From assembly GCA_051599415.1 (NCBI GenBank), contig AP039697.1:186001-250000 (forward strand): a DNA stretch of 64,000 nucleotides, written 5' to 3'. The translations under genes were made by a program, and so were the position numbers. Under the pieces are notes generated by a model that worked only from the letters and a program-made list of their open reading frames with translations, did no database searches and was not told the DNA's origin. Of this stretch, positions 1,537 through 54,535 are shown one piece after another (position 1 is the first letter of the stretch; the number at the start of each line of letters is the position of its first letter). This stretch comes from Savitreella phatthalungensis. Its lineage: Eukaryota.

Positions 1537-3122
1537 ATCAATCAATTTCTACGGAGTAAAGATCAAATTCTGAACCTGTCATACAACTCAATTGTAAAAG
1601 ATCTTTTCAGGGCTTTCCAGCTTGAATAGAAGATGAAACTCACTCTAGACAATCAATCAATCAATCCCTGACGTTGGGAGTTTTTCCCTTTACACAGCCT
1701 CCGAGATCTGTTTCAGTTACAGGTCAATTTGGCCAATCAAAGAGCCCAAATTCATTATACCTATCGAATGCCTATCTTTCTCACACGACCATGCACTCTG
1801 CCTGATACACAGCCCGGCAATCTCGGCAACATCAATACACAAAAGTCAACAGTCTGATGGCACAATCGACTTCTACCTCCGAAAGCTAGCAGAAGTGAGT
1901 TCAGTGAAGGAGCCAGTACAGACTTTGGCATAGAACTCAGTAAGTGGATCTTCAACAATCGATCGCGCTGGCTCAGTGAATGAATCTTTGCCATAGGCCT
2001 CCAGTTATGGAGGCAGTCGTGTTTCAGAGGATGAATAGCGTCATTTGATCACCACCTTGACATCCTCATCTGCGCTCGAAATGATCTCGGCTTTGTTACT
2101 AGCGCACGTGCACCTCTTTACATACAGTAATAGTGTTCAGTTGAACAGGCACACTGTCCCTTGTCTTTGATCCAGCCATAACAAAAGCCTTGATCGTGGG
2201 TGACAAGAGGTCGAGCTCCCATTCCCCCGAATGATCGTGAGAGCAAGCTGTGGACACGACTTGCTCTGCACACCGCGGACACCAGAAAGACGAGTCAATC
2301 GCAGCTTCATGGGACGCCGTGCCCATCCTTTTGCATCTAGGACTCTGGGTCAATACCCATACAAGTGGATCACAGTTGTGGTGGAGTCGGCTTCCGGGAT
2401 GCACATACGCTTTTATCTACCTACTTATTCATGCGCGTATATGATGTTCATGAAACGCTCGAACCACGCTGAAAAAACGTCGGCCTATCCCATACCGTTC
2501 GACGCGGACGGGACACGTTAGAGCTCGTCAGAATTGTGAAAATGGTCGCGTCGATGGAGAGAACTTGACTAGCACTGCCTTACGATTTCTGTGTGACCGT
2601 ACTGCTCTGACTACCTCAAGTCGATATCCCTTTCAGACCTCGAAAGACGTGTCATGGAAAACCAGATCGATATTTCGCCACAGCGATCGACAGTCCTCAC
2701 GTGCTCTACGCCACGACTAAGCCGCCGCCTCACTTCTATAGAATTATTGATCGGACGAAGACAAAAACTGCTTTGCTTAAAAGCTGGAGAGAAGGAAAAC
2801 ATTGGAACAACTCACGCCATATCTGGAGCAGGACAAAATGTTACAAGCACGTGTCTTCATTCAGCGATCGATCGAAAAAGTTGGTAGGTGACAGTCCACG
2901 TCGCCAGGGCCAGGGCCACAGACTACCAGCACTAGCAACTAGCAACGGCACAGCACAGCACAGTGTAGCAGTGCGCGACGTAGCACGCCAGCTCACCTCT
3001 GTCGAGCACGTACGCGTCGACCGAGCTGCCGGTGTACACGCGTACGAGCCCACCAACCCGTGTCGACTTACTTGACGAGCCAGATCTTTTTCTTTCTTGT
3101 CATACACCACACATCACACATC

Positions 3123-4300: not shown

Positions 4301-6283
4301 ATGTTCCGGAACATCTTCCCATCGGCGCCGGTGCCGCGGGGCAAGGGTCCGAAGCATGATGGCAGGAACGCGAGCGCTCCAGAGAATCCGCGGAAACCTA
4401 AAACGCGACCTCCCCGATCGCTGCGTGACAAGATTCTGAAGTCCCTGCCGATGCCGAGCGGTCCCTACAGCGTCGGCAGCATCGACCTCGAGATTCCTGT
4501 GGAGCGGCGTGACTTTGGTGCCGATCACCGCGTTGGGCCTGACGTCCTTGTGGCTGAGACTGTGCTGATGACGATCTTCTACCCGATCGCGGTTGGTTCT
4601 GGTGGTGCAGTTGCGCCTGATGGTCGGGCGCACTGGTCTCGGATGACGTGGTTGAGCCGTGATCGTGCGTCGACTGCGCGCGGGTACGGTGACTTTGGTG
4701 GTGTGAACAAGTTGTTTGCGCAGACGTTCTTTCTGAGCACGGTCGGGTTGACGAAGCTGCCTGCGTGGCGGAACGCTCAACTGGCGATGCACTACCCTCG
4801 CGACACCGCCCGCTCACACGAGGGGGCGCCCATCTTCCCACTCATCCTCTTCTCCCACGGACTCGGCGGGACGAGGACGACGTACAGCTCGATCGTCACG
4901 GAGTATGCCTCCAATGGCTGGGTGTGTGTGTGCGTCGAGCACCGTGACGGCAGCGGTCCACGCACATTCGTCAACTACCCTCGCGCCTCACACAGGCCCC
5001 CTCGCAAGGTAGACTACGTCGAACCCTACGACCGAGACGGTCTCAACGACACCGCCAACGAGATCGCCACCGACCGCGACCTCCGCGACGCTCAGCTCGC
5101 GATGAGGAAGTACGAACTCGAGTGCGCGTACAACGTTCTTTGCAGGATCAACGACGGCGATGGCCACACCGTTGCAGAAGAGAACACCCGTTACAAGCCG
5201 AGCAAGAAACAATCACGAACGCCGACGCCAACTGCCTCACGTCCAGATGATCGCAACCGTGCACGCGTCCGCAGGCAGTCAAGTTTACGGAGTCTCGGCG
5301 ACGCTGCTGGAGACGTGGTTGATGCGATTGTGGGTGGGACGTCTCGGGGGACGATTGGTGTTGATTGGGGTAGTTGGGTTGGACGGTTGCAGATTGACAA
5401 TGTGGCGATGGTGGGTCACTCGTTTGGTGGTGCGACGGCGTACTCTGTGTGCCGAACGCCTGGGATGCTGTCATACGTGACGTGTGGGATCCTGCTGGAT
5501 ACTTGGGGCCAGGGGATTGCGCCGAACCCGCTGGCGGATGAGCAGTTGCACCCGGGCGTGCCGCTGCTGGTCATCGGCAGCGAGTCTTTCCTCTGGTGGG
5601 ACGAGAACACGCGGATCATGGAGGCCGTGAGCGCGGATGCGATCAACGCAGGACAGCTATGTTGGACCTGCACCATTAGAGGCAGCTTCCACCTCAGCTT
5701 CTCAGACTTCTGCCCACTCTGGCCACACCTCTCACGCATCCTCTTCAGCACCAAAGTCGACGCCCGTCGCTGCATCGATCTCGTCACGAACCTCTCCATG
5801 GAGTTTTTCAAGACGATCATGCCAAAGGAGATCGCCAGGTATATCGACCTGGCGGACGAGGACGCAGGACTCCTGAGCACACAGGTGTCTGAGGCCTGGA
5901 AGAACGTGAAGGGAAAACGGAACGCATGGCGGAAGAAGATGCAGCGTGCCGCAAAGGAGGCTGAGCGCGAGGCTAAGAAGGCTGCGGCTGATGCTGGTGG
6001 TGGTGATGGAGACAATGCATCGCCTGAACGGGGAGGTGATGATGGTAAGGGGGTGGAACAAATTGCGGGCAGGTCATCTGAGATCTGGATGCATGTGTCG
6101 CCATTCACCAAGGAAGAGTCAAACCTCTCAGCTGACGGGTGCACACCGTTCCAGTCAGACGCTCACAGCGACACACAGCGAGCCATCAAGCGCAATGCTC
6201 TCCCCGAGTCTCTCAGGAGAGCTCATCATCAAGGCACTCACGCGGCAGGAGATTCGCCAGTGAGCGTGGCGGCGCCCGTCTAG
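4301..6283 (+). CDS. PAF-acetylhydrolase-family (Plg7-like) phospholipase A2 / serine hydrolase
   Basis: GPYSVG, FPLILFSHGLGG.RTTYS, EHRDGS, nucleophile motif GHSFGG, LLDTW, GSFHLSFSDF; 660 aa. Confidence 0.9.
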   Translation: MFRNIFPSAPVPRGKGPKHDGRNASAPENPRKPKTRPPRSLRDKILKSLPMPSGPYSVGSIDLEIPVERRDFGADHRVGPDVLVAETVLMTIFYPIAVGSGGAVAPDGRAHWSRMTWLSRDRASTARGYGDFGGVNKLFAQTFFLSTVGLTKLPAWRNAQLAMHYPRDTARSHEGAPIFPLILFSHGLGGTRTTYSSIVTEYASNGWVCVCVEHRDGSGPRTFVNYPRASHRPPRKVDYVEPYDRDGLNDTANEIATDRDLRDAQLAMRKYELECAYNVLCRINDGDGHTVAEENTRYKPSKKQSRTPTPTASRPDDRNRARVRRQSSLRSLGDAAGDVVDAIVGGTSRGTIGVDWGSWVGRLQIDNVAMVGHSFGGATAYSVCRTPGMLSYVTCGILLDTWGQGIAPNPLADEQLHPGVPLLVIGSESFLWWDENTRIMEAVSADAINAGQLCWTCTIRGSFHLSFSDFCPLWPHLSRILFSTKVDARRCIDLVTNLSMEFFKTIMPKEIARYIDLADEDAGLLSTQVSEAWKNVKGKRNAWRKKMQRAAKEAEREAKKAAADAGGGDGDNASPERGGDDGKGVEQIAGRSSEIWMHVSPFTKEESNLSADGCTPFQSDAHSDTQRAIKRNALPESLRRAHHQGTHAAGDSPVSVAAPV

Positions 6284-43360: not shown

Positions 43361-45103
43361 ATGTCCGGTGCAGTGGCCAGGCAGACGCTCAAAGGCTGGT
43401 TAGAGCTTCCGAAGCGTCGTGTGTCCAGTAACTTGCGCTTTTTTCGTCTCCGCTACTTTGACGAAAGATCGAATGAGCCACGCTCATGTCAGCTGGTCTC
43501 GCGTCACCCGCCTGACACCAAGATCTCGAAATTGCTGTCGAGCTTGACACCAGAATCATGTGTGGCTGTCGAATGTTCAAAGAGCTTGCGGCCAGACAAA
43601 GATCAACGGGATGGAGAAGGTGATAAGTACGAGTACGAGATTGAGGGGATTAGCGTGCTGAATCGTGCGAATGAACGATTGCCCTTCCTGCCGAACGCTG
43701 AAGGTGAAGTCGATCCACTGGTCCGTGCTCAGCACAGACACATCGACCTGCGATCATCGAAGCTCGGTGGCGCTCTTCGAAGGCGGGCTCAGATCCGACG
43801 TCAGCTACAGAGATCCTTTGAAGACCAGGGTTTCCTCGAAGTCGAGACCCCACTGCTTTTCAAATCGACGCCCGAAGGGGCGAGAGAGTTTCTTGTACCA
43901 ACACGTCGCAAGGGCCGATTCTTCGCGCTGCCTCAGAGTCCGCAGCAATACAAACAGCTGCTCATGGCAGGCGGCGTGCACAGATACTTCCAGCTCGCAC
44001 GCTGCTTTCGAGACGAAGATTCTCGCGCGGACCGTCAGCCAGAGTTCACACAGCTCGACCTCGAGATGGGCTTTGCCGGGGCCGAAGACGTGATGTCGGC
44101 AGTCGCAGAAGCAGTGCTCTCAGTCGATGCACCTTTCAATGCAAAGCAGCCAGCAGACATCAAGCGCATCTCCTATATGGAAGCGATGAAGCGGTATGGC
44201 TCGGACAAGCCGGATCTGCGATTCGACATGGAGATCCAGACAGTCGGAGTCAAGGAAAAGGACTGCTCGACGGTCGAGGTCATTCGTAGCACCTTGATTG
44301 GCTCGGCGAGCAACAAAATGATATCAGAGTTGCGCGACCATGTCAAGGAGTTCGGAGACGGACTATACGTTATTTATGGCAAGACGAAGTCAGAGATCAA
44401 CCTGGAGCGCATGTTCAAGCTTGACGACAAGCTTTCCGCTCATCCTGATGAGATCTTGATTCTCGCAGAACGGCCGAACATGCTATTCGGCGGATCGACG
44501 AAACTCGGGCAGGTGAGGTTGTTGCTGCAATCGTGGCTTGAGCGACATGATCTCACCAATACACCACGACGACGTGAGCCGCTCAATCTCTGTTGGGTGA
44601 CGGACTTCCCTCTGTTCTCCCCAGCAGATGAGCAGACCTACCGCCCGAGTACACACGAATCTACACAGCTTGCATCGACACATCATCCGTTCACAGCACC
44701 TCATCCGGACGATGTGCACCTGCTCGAGACCGACCCGCTCAAGGTGCGCGGCCTGCACTACGACCTTGTGCTGAACGGTGTAGAGATCGGTGGTGGAAGT
44801 GCACGTATTCACGATCCATCGATGCAGACAGCTGTGTTGCGCGACCACTTGCGGCTGTCGGCGGATGAGGTGGCGAGATTCGACCACCTAGTACGGGTGC
44901 TCGGCAGTGGATGCCCGCCGCATGCTGGCTTTGCCCTGGGATTCGATCGCTTCGTCGCGACGATCCTAGGCGCTAGCAGTATCAGGGACGTTCTGGCATT
45001 CCCGAAGACGACAGGTGGTCAGGATGCCCTGGTTGGCTCCCCCTCCCAAGTCAACGCTGCTCGTCTTGCAGATTACCACCTGCAAGAGCTCGACCGCAAG
45101 TAG
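43361..45103 (+). CDS. MSD1: Mitochondrial (bacterial-type) aspartyl-tRNA synthetase
   Basis: EVETPLLFKSTPEGAREFLVP, LPQSPQQYKQLLM, ARCFRDED.RADRQPEFTQLDLEM, YGSDKPDLR, HHPFT, GCPPHAGFALGFDR. N-terminus uncertain: a possible extra exon 43189-43198 joins in frame through an intron at 43199-43280. Confidence 0.95.
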   Translation: MSGAVARQTLKGWLELPKRRVSSNLRFFRLRYFDERSNEPRSCQLVSRHPPDTKISKLLSSLTPESCVAVECSKSLRPDKDQRDGEGDKYEYEIEGISVLNRANERLPFLPNAEGEVDPLVRAQHRHIDLRSSKLGGALRRRAQIRRQLQRSFEDQGFLEVETPLLFKSTPEGAREFLVPTRRKGRFFALPQSPQQYKQLLMAGGVHRYFQLARCFRDEDSRADRQPEFTQLDLEMGFAGAEDVMSAVAEAVLSVDAPFNAKQPADIKRISYMEAMKRYGSDKPDLRFDMEIQTVGVKEKDCSTVEVIRSTLIGSASNKMISELRDHVKEFGDGLYVIYGKTKSEINLERMFKLDDKLSAHPDEILILAERPNMLFGGSTKLGQVRLLLQSWLERHDLTNTPRRREPLNLCWVTDFPLFSPADEQTYRPSTHESTQLASTHHPFTAPHPDDVHLLETDPLKVRGLHYDLVLNGVEIGGGSARIHDPSMQTAVLRDHLRLSADEVARFDHLVRVLGSGCPPHAGFALGFDRFVATILGASSIRDVLAFPKTTGGQDALVGSPSQVNAARLADYHLQELDRK

Positions 45104-45465
45104 ACACGGACCACGACTGACGACATACGATAGCATTCATATACAGTGCACTGGCATTTCTTGGAGGGTCTTTACGCCGGCATCCAACTCTGATGAAGAC
45201 TGCTAGTCGGCAACGGTGACCAATGTTACTGCTCAACGAATTTGCCCGCGTACAATATCCTTTGGTTGTGATAATCACGTGCATAAGCAAAACAACAAAA
45301 AACCGAAAATCAAAACAAAGCGTCAGTGGCATCGATCGCGCGCGCAAGAACATCCATCCTCCTATTGAAAAAGAGCACGAGCATATAGAGCAAGCCTCTA
45401 CATCAGTCATTAGCGGCTGCTCTCTTCTCTATCTTGATTTGGCGTTTGAGCCTGTGTGCTTGCTG

Positions 45466-47184
45466 ATGAATTGGCTGCGTGCGCGACATACCGGCGACAT
45501 GGTGTCTTCTGGAGAAGGTCCTGAGACGCCTGTTCACCGATGGGCGATCGATGCGTTCCGCGGTGTGCTGCTGCCTGGTCCGCGCCACCACCTTGTGCCT
45601 TCGGCGGACACGGCCGATGAGGTGACCCCGGCATCGTCTCCTCGAGCAGCACGCTCTCGCTTCGCCAAGCCACAAAATCACGCAGCATCACCGGCACCGG
45701 TACCAGGCCCATCCATCATGCGCACACCAGGAGGAACAAAGACGGATACAACTCACGGACCAAACACAGCCGATCGGAAAAAGGCAGTCACATTTATCGA
45801 TGAAGATGAGGGGAGCGAGAGGAGGCGGTCGAAAGGTGGGCGTGTACGGTCGGGATTGCCTCGAGAGTTTCCTGGAAAGTTTCCGTCGCCGTGGACGCCG
45901 AAAGTGGTGGATGCTGCTGAGGAATTGGTGGAGGTGCAAGAGTCGTTACCATCCACATCGCTCAAGGACTTCCACCCACGACGGTCCTCTACATCGTCCG
46001 TCAGCAGAGACCTCCTCCTGAGCGCAGCCACACGGCGGACGCAGAATCGACTGTCGTCTGCGGCCGAGAAGTTGGACGTCGAGGCCGCGATGCGACAGAG
46101 ACCTGCTGTCGGGATGAAGACGACGGCAGCTGAGTCTGAGCGTGCGCTAGCGAAGTCGTACGAGCAGCTAGATTGGTCGCTTGCGCAGGCGGGTGATGGC
46201 GGAAAGCTGCCCACGGAAGAGCGGGAGTTGGAGGCGCTTGTAGGTCAGCTGTCGAGGAACAACGCGGTGCTCGAGCAGATGATTGGGGAGATGCAGGCGC
46301 TGTGTGAGGCTGAGCACGGTGAGACCGGTGTGGTGATCGGGGACGATGAGGATGTGACGTTGAATTTAGACGCTCCCCGGAGTAGGTCGGGCAAGTTCTG
46401 GCAGACGCAGTTCAGGACGCTGGACGAGCTCGTCGGCAGATGTCGGTCTGAGCAGGCGCGAATGCGTGCGGCGTTGCACGACGTCGCTGTGCGCGCGCAG
46501 CGCGATGGTGGGGCTGCCTCGTCCGACGCAGTCGCGGCAGAGACGCGCAGGTGGCAGGCAAAGCTGGACAAGCAGGCTGCGCAGCACGAAGCTGCCCTCC
46601 AAGCCCTCAAGCACGCCACCGCAGACGGCAGGGAAGTCAGAGAGCTCAGGCGACAACTTCGCCTCGCGCAAGCACGCGCCGAGCGCGACACCGTCACGCG
46701 CACGCCCAACGCACGTACCCCACACACGAACCGGTTTGGAGGAGGGCGGAGCGCGTTGAAGGGGACTGGTGGGAAAGTGCCGATGTCTGCGACGTCTAAG
46801 CGATTGATGACCTTGCGTGATCGGGAGCTGGGAGTTGGTATGGATGGATTGAGTGGTACGTCTCCAACGAAACGTCCACAACAGCAGGTGCGGCCACCCT
46901 TGGCGGCAGTGTCTCCGAATAAGCGGCCTGCGAGCCCGATCAAGACGGCAGTTCGGAAGAGTACAGGTTTAGGTGCTCGGCCTGTGCTCGACGATCCCCT
47001 TATCAAGTCTCGGAAGGCTGTCTCGGGCGCGAGTGTCAGTGCAACTGCGGGAGGAAGAGGTGGCGACGAGGGGTCAGGGAATGTGGCGAGGATGCAAGCT
47101 GCAATGTCGCGACTGGAACTGCGGAAAGCGGCACGCCGCCAGCAACAGCAACAGCAGCAGTCGGCTGCGATTGATGTATCGTAG
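45466..47184 (+). CDS. cut12: Spindle-pole-body protein with Cut12-type domain and coiled coil
   Basis: PETP..WAIDAF, KKAVTF, RSGLP..FPGKFPSPWTPK, DVTLNL..PRSRSGKFW. Start set at MNWLR. Confidence 0.78.
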   Translation: MNWLRARHTGDMVSSGEGPETPVHRWAIDAFRGVLLPGPRHHLVPSADTADEVTPASSPRAARSRFAKPQNHAASPAPVPGPSIMRTPGGTKTDTTHGPNTADRKKAVTFIDEDEGSERRRSKGGRVRSGLPREFPGKFPSPWTPKVVDAAEELVEVQESLPSTSLKDFHPRRSSTSSVSRDLLLSAATRRTQNRLSSAAEKLDVEAAMRQRPAVGMKTTAAESERALAKSYEQLDWSLAQAGDGGKLPTEERELEALVGQLSRNNAVLEQMIGEMQALCEAEHGETGVVIGDDEDVTLNLDAPRSRSGKFWQTQFRTLDELVGRCRSEQARMRAALHDVAVRAQRDGGAASSDAVAAETRRWQAKLDKQAAQHEAALQALKHATADGREVRELRRQLRLAQARAERDTVTRTPNARTPHTNRFGGGRSALKGTGGKVPMSATSKRLMTLRDRELGVGMDGLSGTSPTKRPQQQVRPPLAAVSPNKRPASPIKTAVRKSTGLGARPVLDDPLIKSRKAVSGASVSATAGGRGGDEGSGNVARMQAAMSRLELRKAARRQQQQQQQSAAIDVS

Positions 47185-47353
47185 ATAAATTCAAGACAAC
47201 ATCATGTCAGTCATTGTTACATGTGCAAGCGAGCGAGACACCCGGGATTCATGCACAGACTGGGGAGAACCTGTATGGTGTTGATGTCTTTGGAAAGGTA
47301 ACGACGACTGTGCAAGACGTGATCGAGTGACGTTGTGCATGTCTGTGAGGGAT

Positions 47354-52484: not shown

Positions 52485-52833
52485 ATGGCACCGCCGACAA
52501 AGGTATTCCCAGGCAGTTCGAAACCTTACTACCTCGATTCCCGCCACCAGGTCTATCCTGAGAGTGAGATTCGGCAGATCACGCAGTACGAGTGCGATTT
52601 GAGCGATCGACGGGTCGTCACCTGCGTCCCACTTGAACGATTCTTCAGGGTGTAAAGCTTCGTATCACTCATTCTATTTGGATCGCGGTTGCTGACTAAC
52701 TACTAGTGCTATTGGCGGCGGAATAGTTGAGATTTCACGAGCTGAGGCTCTTGGCAGTGGGAAGTTGAAGAAAGCTGCGTCTTCGACAGTGCCAGCACGG
52801 GATCAGACAATCACACAGGTAGACAACCGGTGA
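52485..52833 (+). CDS. SOM1: Mitochondrial inner-membrane peptidase subunit Som1; exons 52485-52651 and 52707-52833 (97 aa)
   Basis: MAPPT.VF...ITQYEC...CVPLERFFR..VEIS follows the Som1 pattern (MAPP, QxEC, CxPxxRxF, VExT). Intron has a strong CTAAC..TAG 3' end. Donor is either GTAAAG at 52652 or GTGTAA at 52650 (the latter stops at 52730). Confidence 0.78.
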
Positions 52834-52868
52834 CACGAATTCACGCACTCTGACGGGATGTCCTTCAG

Positions 52869-53342
52869 ATGAGCATTCCTAGCCTCATTGTTCCGCTCGA
52901 CCGGCTTCGGCTCGGGCTTGGCAAGGTGCGATTTCTCGGTCGGCTGCTTGTCTACGACGTCGAGACTGGTTGCTGCATGCTGGAGCACGGTGGGGCGAGG
53001 GTGATCGTAGATGTGAATTCACTCTTGACACGCACGCTCTCCATCACTTCGAAAGCCGATGGTTCCGAGAAACGCGCTGATCCTGGCGCTCAACTCAGAC
53101 TCGAGGTTGGCGCCATGTACAATGTGATTGGCTGGGTGCGTTCGCCTTCGTCCCCTCCGTCCTCACAAGCTGCTGCCGCGGCACCGATGCACGTAGATCA
53201 CGGTTCAGGAGCTCTCGACGTCCAGGTCGATGCCCTCCTCATATGGTCAGCAGGGATGATGACGGATGACGACATTGCTGCTTATGACAGGGCTGTACGC
53301 GGACGTGTCAGACTGCGGCGACTTGACGCTGCTTCCAAATGA
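52869..53342 (+). CDS. TEN1: Telomere-capping CST subunit Ten1 (OB fold)
   Basis: KVRFLG...YD...G, VDVNSLL, VGAMYNVIGWV and VDALLIWSAG match fungal Ten1 motifs. Confidence 0.82.
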   Translation: MSIPSLIVPLDRLRLGLGKVRFLGRLLVYDVETGCCMLEHGGARVIVDVNSLLTRTLSITSKADGSEKRADPGAQLRLEVGAMYNVIGWVRSPSSPPSSQAAAAAPMHVDHGSGALDVQVDALLIWSAGMMTDDDIAAYDRAVRGRVRLRRLDAASK

Positions 53343-53686
53343 GCCCCGCGCATCATGAGCTCAGCGTCCACACACAATGCCCAAGCAACTTTATGTACAC
53401 TACGATAGGATCGGTGGCCAAGGAAAAGCGGCTGATCCTTGGGACCGCTGCCGCGAGCACTGACACTTCTCTATTTTGATCAGAAATACAAATCCATGAT
53501 CGGACAAAAAGCATATTTGGCTCGCCGACCACAGATCAAATTGACGTCGTGAGTCCGGTACATGGTGTGCACTCCACTGTGCGCATCGCAGAGACACTGG
53601 TCAACAGGTGCTACACAGACTTTCATTGGCGCGATCATCCCTGGCTGCTTGTGTTCGTGAAGATCTATCACTGCTGACGTCCGTCG

Positions 53687-54535
53687 ATGCGCGTATACTC
53701 GACGTCTTTGGTGCGTCTTTTGCTTGGTACATTTATCGTGTGCTTGGTGTACTGGGGCTTATCGACGGACGATCTGGGCTCGATCGAGATGGGTCTTGTG
53801 GAGGAGTCTATGGCGGTTGGGAAAGGAGGACGTCATGTCTCGCTGGACGTGTATGTGATGTCGCGGTGTCCCGACGCCGTTTACGCAGTCGGATTCTTGA
53901 AGTCGCGCGTGTTGAACCACTTCAGCAATGCTCCGCGGGACATTGATGGCGCTGCTGGTCGCCGTGGGAATATCACAACGCACGTCCATATGCTCCTTGA
54001 CTGGCTGACACCCGAGACATCATCATCACAGAGAGTTTTCAACGGACAAGGGGTGGAAATAGAGGACTACCAAGAAGGTCGTGATTACGAGTGCCGCCAC
54101 GGGCACCTGGAGTGTGTCGGTAATGGTGTGGCCTTGGCTGTCGAGGCTGCCACGGAGGGTCGTTCGCCTCGCGGACTCGATTTCTTGGACGCTTGGTTCA
54201 GGCAGGGTGACTCTCTTGACCATATTGGCAAGGTTCCGTCTCGGGAACTCGACGATGCGCTTGCGGATCCTGCAGCAGGTCCTATCACTGCGTCAGAGGT
54301 GAAGAGGGTGTGGGAGATTCTCGGTGAGACTGGTGAGAGCAAAGAGGCGATGGCGATGGTCGCAGCGAGTGGTGCTGCAGCTAGAAAGAAGGGCATCCAG
54401 TATAGTGCTACGGTCGTGCTCAATGGAGAAACGGTGGCTGTTCGCGACGGAGGGCAATGGAAGGAAACTGAGGCGTCTGGTCTCGGCGATGACGCCGCGG
54501 CTTGGGTAATGTATATTGAACGCCTCATGGGTTAG
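53687..54535 (+). CDS. GILT-like thioredoxin-fold protein with N-terminal signal/anchor
   Basis: VYVMSRCPDA, CRHGHLECVGN, VRDGGQWK; hydrophobic N-terminus. Confidence 0.8.
   Translation: MRVYSTSLVRLLLGTFIVCLVYWGLSTDDLGSIEMGLVEESMAVGKGGRHVSLDVYVMSRCPDAVYAVGFLKSRVLNHFSNAPRDIDGAAGRRGNITTHVHMLLDWLTPETSSSQRVFNGQGVEIEDYQEGRDYECRHGHLECVGNGVALAVEAATEGRSPRGLDFLDAWFRQGDSLDHIGKVPSRELDDALADPAAGPITASEVKRVWEILGETGESKEAMAMVAASGAAARKKGIQYSATVVLNGETVAVRDGGQWKETEASGLGDDAAAWVMYIERLMG

Follow-up and report, generated by a model that had tools for sequence, protein, structure and literature searches.

Two neighbouring genes in Savitreella phatthalungensis raise the question of whether a mitochondrial and a nuclear protein can be drawn from one transcription unit, and, if so, whether they leave it as one polypeptide or two. 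Som1 is a helper subunit of the mitochondrial inner-membrane peptidase, where its partners are Imp1 and Imp2, and Ten1 is the small OB-fold subunit of the nuclear CST telomere complex. In the 64,000-nt stretch analyzed here (contig AP039697.1, positions 186,001–250,000, hereafter the window), SOM1 and TEN1 lie head to tail on the same strand, with a spacer of 35 nt (52834..52868, +) separating the stop of SOM1 from the ATG of TEN1. An initial annotation had linked them by a splice switch that would yield either free Som1 or a Som1-Ten1 fusion. We re-read the window sequence and rebuilt the gene models by coordinate, and all the coordinates given there were confirmed. Our preferred explanation, to which we assign a probability of roughly 0.78, is that SOM1 and TEN1 are two ordinary genes that encode separate proteins and whose transcripts would overlap or be shared. 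No long ORF was found on the opposite strand of the locus, and Rfam families had zero matches anywhere in the window. The literature searched contained no paper that names both Som1 and Ten1. The next gene after TEN1 (53687–54535, +) encodes 282 aa and matches GILT thiol reductases below the family threshold (20 bits; cut-off 22.4).

The upstream gene belongs to the family that had been proposed for it. SOM1 exon 1 (52485..52651, +; ATG at 52485) comprises 55 codons plus 2 nt, thus ending in phase 2, and exon 1 alone exceeds the 23.3-bit cut-off of the Som1 family model (Pfam PF11093), reaching 26.4 bits over profile positions 1–72 of 90. Language-model Atlas clusters assigned to Som1 (score 0.92) have members of 73–99 aa, which matches the size of a stand-alone protein. 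A word-index protein search retrieved three Som1 relatives (P0002–P0004), which are 64–85 per cent identical to exon 1, and the Som1 alignment (A1) has 32 invariant columns, C37 and C47 among them. The most informative relative is P0002 (85 per cent identity to exon 1), which is encoded on an intron-less 945-nt contig and reads on beyond the exon boundary. On the Som1 Pfam profile, P0002 scores 35.7 bits over positions 1–89 of 90, a span that includes the residues matching SOM1 exon 2.

This relative also helps to place the exon boundary. SOM1 intron 1 (52652..52706, +; 55 nt) runs from the donor GTAAAG through GCTGACTAAC to TAG, with CTGACTAAC as the branch region and the acceptor AG at 52705–52706, and is followed by exon 2 (52707..52833, +), which closes with a TGA at 52831–52833. 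In the reading frame that donor 52652 imposes, exon 2 aligns to P0002 residues 57–71, which directly follow the exon junction position (9 of 15 residues identical, 13 of 15 positive; E = 7e-6). A Som1 gene on a metagenome contig (L001; 69 per cent identical) is interrupted by an intron that agrees with this one in position, phase, and length (55 nt) and has the donor GTAAGG. The initial annotation had drawn attention to tandem donors, GT|GT at 52650/52652, as a second point of choice. Both dinucleotides are present, and use of the first would indeed end the SOM1 frame at a stop at 52728–52730. The frame from donor 52650 aligns to none of the relatives, however, and the orthologous intron in L001 is preceded by AT rather than GT; we therefore rejected the use of this donor, and with only the 52652 frame backed by homology, the tandem-donor idea falls. 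Because the 52652 frame is conserved and the intron is shared with L001, SOM1 is best modeled as a two-exon gene of 97 aa; on these sequence comparisons, donor 52652 is the one used, and a switch between tandem donors finds no support in the relatives. The protein collection contains the 157-aa Ten1, whereas a 97-aa product of SOM1 from this genome was not found in it.

TEN1 (52869..53342, +; stop at 53340–53342) is a single exon of 157 aa. Its assignment to the Ten1 family holds as well, with a score of 40.9 bits on Pfam PF12658 against a cut-off of 25. Three relatives (P0007, P0008 and P0011) score 30–37 bits on the same model, and Ten1 Atlas clusters (score 0.95) have members of 132–158 aa, again the size of a stand-alone protein. 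When a five-sequence Ten1 profile (A2) was compared to PDB sequences, Ten1 chains made up the best six of seven matches, all of them weak (E = 0.02–0.06). An AlphaFold model built from a five-sequence alignment has a mean pLDDT of 45.7, too low for the fold to be relied upon, and a strand order compatible with an OB barrel followed by a C-terminal helix. An exhaustive phmmer search yielded three genuine relatives of Ten1, which measure 109, 155 and 116 aa and all lack an N-terminal extension. Two further phmmer matches were spurious and were discarded: P0009 is a bacterial Ig/cadherin-like protein, and P0010 contains a phage Mu Gp37 domain. The start of the protein is conserved: the relatives P0007, P0012 and P0008 begin with MSLPS and the TEN1 of the window begins with MSIPS. 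There is nothing unusual about the Som1 and Ten1 proteins themselves, and it is the spacing of their genes alone that is unusual.

The 35-nt spacer is the smallest stop-to-ATG gap among the tandem gene pairs of the window, where such gaps mostly measure at least 250 nt. Convergent genes are packed tightly, with stop-to-stop gaps of 20–232 nt that include gaps of 20, 54, 64, 88 and 112 nt. The tight convergent pairs are located at 6283/6348, 8500/8555, 13011/13100, 26381/26402 and 33774/33887. Since convergent stops lie only 20–112 nt apart in these places, the 3′ untranslated regions (UTRs) of the genes concerned must overlap. The genome, as seen in the window, is poor in introns and very compact. 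Another closely spaced tandem pair consists of a class II tRNA synthetase gene (43361–45103, +; PF00152, 335 bits) and, 119 nt further on, a Cut12-domain gene (45223–47184, +; PF11500, 33 bits), whose product is unrelated to its tRNA synthetase neighbor.

A 3′ end, a promoter, and a 5′ leader do not fit into a gap of 35 nt, and the transcripts of SOM1 and TEN1 should therefore overlap or be shared. From this geometry, we predict that the two genes must lack fully separate transcription units. SOM1 transcripts would extend into TEN1 or beyond it, and the leader of TEN1 would overlie SOM1. Our best guess at the resulting mixture is a SOM1–TEN1 co-transcript that would end past TEN1, plus a shorter TEN1 transcript that would start within or just 5′ of SOM1; in either, ribosomes scanning a nearly ATG-free leader would arrive at the TEN1 ATG. 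Co-transcription of the two genes is plausible, and a mixture of this kind would resemble the one described for mushroom-forming fungi.

In Agaricomycetes, long reads have revealed neighboring genes that are co-transcribed and are also transcribed separately (Gordon et al. 2015; PMC4503453). These read-through units resemble the arrangement we propose for SOM1 and TEN1 in that same-strand neighbors retain separate ORFs (PMC4503453), and they differ in the kind of evidence, as the Agaricomycete units are known from long-read transcripts, whereas SOM1–TEN1 is proposed here from DNA. The same report describes fungal polycistronic transcripts as absent in Neurospora and their conservation as dropping outside Agaricomycetes, and it leaves their translation as a question ("how are they translated?"; PMC4503453).

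Whether SOM1 and TEN1 are also joined at the protein level depends on the segment 52819..52868 (+; 50 nt), in which the initial annotation had seen an intron (GTAGAC ... CTGAC ... CAG) whose regulated removal would give a fusion and whose retention would give free Som1. The geometry of this segment is as had been described. Both of its ends are in phase 0, the SOM1 stop lies inside it, CTGAC sits 15 nt before its 3′ end, and its terminal CAG abuts the TEN1 ATG. Its excision would produce an in-frame protein of 250 aa (93 from the Som1 side and 157 from Ten1) with the junction peptide that had been predicted, and it would also remove an ATG at 52858, to which we return below. The branch sequence CTGAC and the acceptor CAG are good. 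The fungal splice donor consensus is GTRNGT, and GTAGAC, which has A at +5 in place of G and C at +6 in place of T, departs from it, whereas the two introns backed by homology, those of SOM1 and L001, have the donors GTAAAG and GTAAGG. The window, being intron-poor, did not furnish a donor profile of the organism for comparison (317 loose ORF-joining candidates and 16 strict, doubtful ones), and donor hexamers upstream of CTRAC...YAG modules in the window showed no enrichment.

We gauged how readily such a segment arises by chance by simulating 20,000 constructs, each consisting of an ORF tail, a 35-nt spacer, and an ATG. Some in-frame, stop-removing GT...YAG segment occurred in 56 per cent of these simulated tight pairs, and one that also contained a branch sequence (GT...CTRAY...YAG) in 9.1 per cent. 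A branch-bearing, stop-removing segment with a consensus GTRNGY donor was present in 1.5 per cent; the real donor is non-consensus. The feature that is rare by chance is the position of the acceptor, which abutted the ATG exactly in only 0.45 per cent of the constructs; similarly, a YAG with a well-placed CTRAY occurs directly 5′ of just 7 of the 2138 ATGs in the window. The acceptor at 52868 may thus be real.

The protein comparisons speak against a fusion. Both domains were found together in none of seven relatives (zero of three for Ten1 and zero of four for Som1), most of which are plain ORF calls that would be blind to a spliced fusion. The word-index search returned no longer protein bearing Som1 and, when seeded with Ten1, only the window's own Ten1; both are weak negatives. 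No Atlas cluster mixes the two families, each cluster containing one of them. Furthermore, the Som1 relatives for which a tail is available (P0002, P0005, P0004/P0006 and L001) terminate at their own stop 20–37 aa past the exon junction, and their tails vary in sequence and extent. The Som1 stop, which the proposed excision would delete, and the Ten1 start, which it would place in the middle of a protein, are hence features that relatives keep. There is also no evident reason to tether a protein on the intermembrane-space side of mitochondria to a nuclear telomere protein.

The proposed splicing would conform to a known type of event. In transcription-induced chimeras, which are established by cDNA evidence, the last upstream coding exon is spliced into the next gene with loss of the stop, exactly as in the model of the initial annotation, and human TEN1-CDK3 is a read-through transcript. 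In contrast to such chimeras, SOM1–TEN1 has a non-consensus donor, and a fused homolog was not found. Therefore, while the frame, the geometry, and the 250-aa product of the proposed intron withstand scrutiny, the non-consensus donor, the absence of fusions among the seven relatives, and the 9.1 per cent chance expectation leave a regulated splice switch very improbable. The segment 52819–52868 most probably resembles an intron by chance or, at most, undergoes minor splicing; a genuine Som1-Ten1 fusion protein is unlikely and would be surprising.

The acceptor at 52868 could also be paired with the SOM1 donor at 52652, so that a 217-nt intron would be removed and exon 2 skipped. The sequence permits this event, which would join the good donor GTAAAG to the CAG acceptor and its branch sequence and leave a 56-aa Som1 core whose stop would overlap the TEN1 ATG (GT|ATGA). 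An overlap of this kind would suit reinitiation, and stop/start overlaps are described at some algal bicistronic loci (PMC11291117). The proposal is drawn from sequence alone, however. Exon 2 begins with conserved residues that fall within the Som1 Pfam profile, and a product lacking them would be truncated. We consider exon-2 skipping extremely unlikely.

Our preferred reading, in which transcripts that overlap or are shared would give two separate proteins, is grounded in several observations: the identities of the two genes, their exon structure, and the conservation of both the stop-terminated tail of SOM1 and the start of TEN1. A special case of it deserves separate consideration. In an obligate bicistron, a single mRNA would carry both ORFs, and TEN1 would be translated either by leaky scanning past a weak SOM1 start or by reinitiation. 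This too would yield separate proteins; the sole difference from our preferred explanation is that TEN1 would have no independent transcript.

The short inter-ORF distance of 35 nt is what a bicistron would be expected to have, and the spacer is unstructured: we detected no structure upon folding (z = +1.88), and 197 of 200 shuffled sequences fold at least as well. The context of the SOM1 start is a further weak hint. The SOM1 ATG has C at −3, which it shares with 2 of 29 long-ORF starts, a purine occupying this position in 22 of the 29. Downstream of it, all three frames are free of ATG from 52486 to 52857, and only one ATG-free stretch on the + strand is longer. (The longest on either strand of the window is a 1208-nt stretch on the minus strand, at about 45994–47202, where the + strand accordingly lacks CAT; it extends over most of the Cut12-domain gene.)

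The ATG desert loses much of its force on closer inspection. About 3 per cent of 315-nt coding windows lack an ATG, and the SOM1 desert has a P of approximately 0.03–0.05. Yet resampling of synonymous codons for the SOM1 protein gave zero out-of-frame ATGs in 26 per cent of trials, and 15 per cent of 96-residue proteins would lack Met. The desert is thus largely attributable to amino-acid composition and counts as weak evidence for a bicistron. Additionally, the one ATG between the SOM1 and TEN1 starts stands in the path of a scanning ribosome. Located at 52858, it opens a mini-ORF of four codons (MSFR; 52858..52872, +), the TGA of which overlaps the TEN1 ATG in an ATGA arrangement, and its favored G at −3 makes it a better start than those of either SOM1 or TEN1, both of which have C at this position.

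The distribution of the palindrome TGTACA offers a further argument, which likewise weakens when the whole window is considered. The initial annotation had noted a copy past TEN1 and none in the spacer and had connected the motif with 3′ ends. There is a copy at 53394..53399, 52 nt 3′ of the TEN1 stop, as a candidate 3′-end-associated motif, and the spacer indeed lacks one; a second copy, which had not been mentioned, is present at 53116..53121, inside TEN1 and 283 nt past the SOM1 stop. Across the window, TGTACA occurs 20 times against 9.9 expected, a count reached in none of 100 shuffles, and it is found within 150 nt past the stop in 10 of 31 genes, at distances of 20–110 nt. Three short convergent gaps contain one copy each, which serves both genes. 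Examples of TGTACA sites are those at 3033, 6303, 8522, 13050, 40728, 50919 and 53394. The association with 3′ ends is therefore partly supported, and we regard TGTACA as a candidate bidirectional 3′-end or termination element of this genome. That no copy is met until inside or after TEN1 would agree with a transcript running through both genes. However, because 21 of the 31 genes have no TGTACA within 150 nt, its absence after SOM1 says little.

Related DNA does not reveal the same arrangement. Our scan of metagenomes for related loci yielded L001 only, and in the 215 nt that follow the Som1 stop there, where the contig ends, we found no Ten1 and no tblastn match. The expectation that the linkage would be shared by related genomes was thus not borne out at this one locus, within those 215 nt. 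The upstream neighbor of Som1 in L001 matches nothing in the window. The L001 Som1, without an adjacent Ten1, contains several internal ATGs, and in this respect the locus fits the bicistron reading, in which an ATG-poor SOM1 would go together with a downstream TEN1; the missing linkage in the same 215 nt tells against it. The contigs that carry Som1 relatives (945, 1091, 36698, 21348 and 5799 nt) and those that carry Ten1 relatives (2253, 2227, 7856 and 75005 nt) have no length in common among those listed. Two of the former, the ENA contigs of P0002 (945 nt) and P0005 (1091 nt), the closest Som1 relatives, are intron-less and far larger than the 273-nt ORF, and the P0005 contig is open for at least 216 nt upstream of Som1. 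The sizes of these two contigs may fit Som1-Ten1 co-transcripts.

The closest parallels to an obligate bicistron are the leaky-scanning bicistronic loci of green algae (PMC11291117; see also PMC7896298). As described there, the algal loci combine a weak Kozak context at ORF 1, a scarcity or absence of ATGs ahead of ORF 2, and inter-ORF distances below 100 nt, features that those of SOM1–TEN1 resemble; moreover, their upstream ORF is small, TOM22 being an example (PMC11291117), and SOM1 is likewise small and mitochondrial. SOM1–TEN1 differs from these loci in being fungal, in having the intervening ATG at 52858, and in not being arranged in this way in L001. Against the exclusive use of a single mRNA, it also weighs that co-transcribed genes in the fungi studied are transcribed independently as well (PMC4503453). 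On balance, an obligate bicistron is possible, and we consider it doubtful. A more elaborate version, in which SOM1–TEN1 would be a true fungal bicistron and a minor splice (of 52819–52868 or by skipping of exon 2) would remove the ATG at 52858 and so tune the ratio of the two proteins, is clearly improbable. Taken together, translation of both ORFs from one mRNA by leaky scanning is an unlikely reading, and it is the most interesting of those that are left beside our preferred one.

SOM1 and TEN1 are, in sum, a pair of ordinary genes within a compact genome. If mere proximity is all that connects the two genes, the locus matters for annotation only, as a small two-exon gene such as SOM1 is easily missed. 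If both proteins are translated from one mRNA, the pair would be a small natural system in which to study leaky scanning or reinitiation in a fungus, and if it is a true bicistron, it would be a natural fungal counterpart to the leaky-scanning loci that have so far been characterized in green algae.
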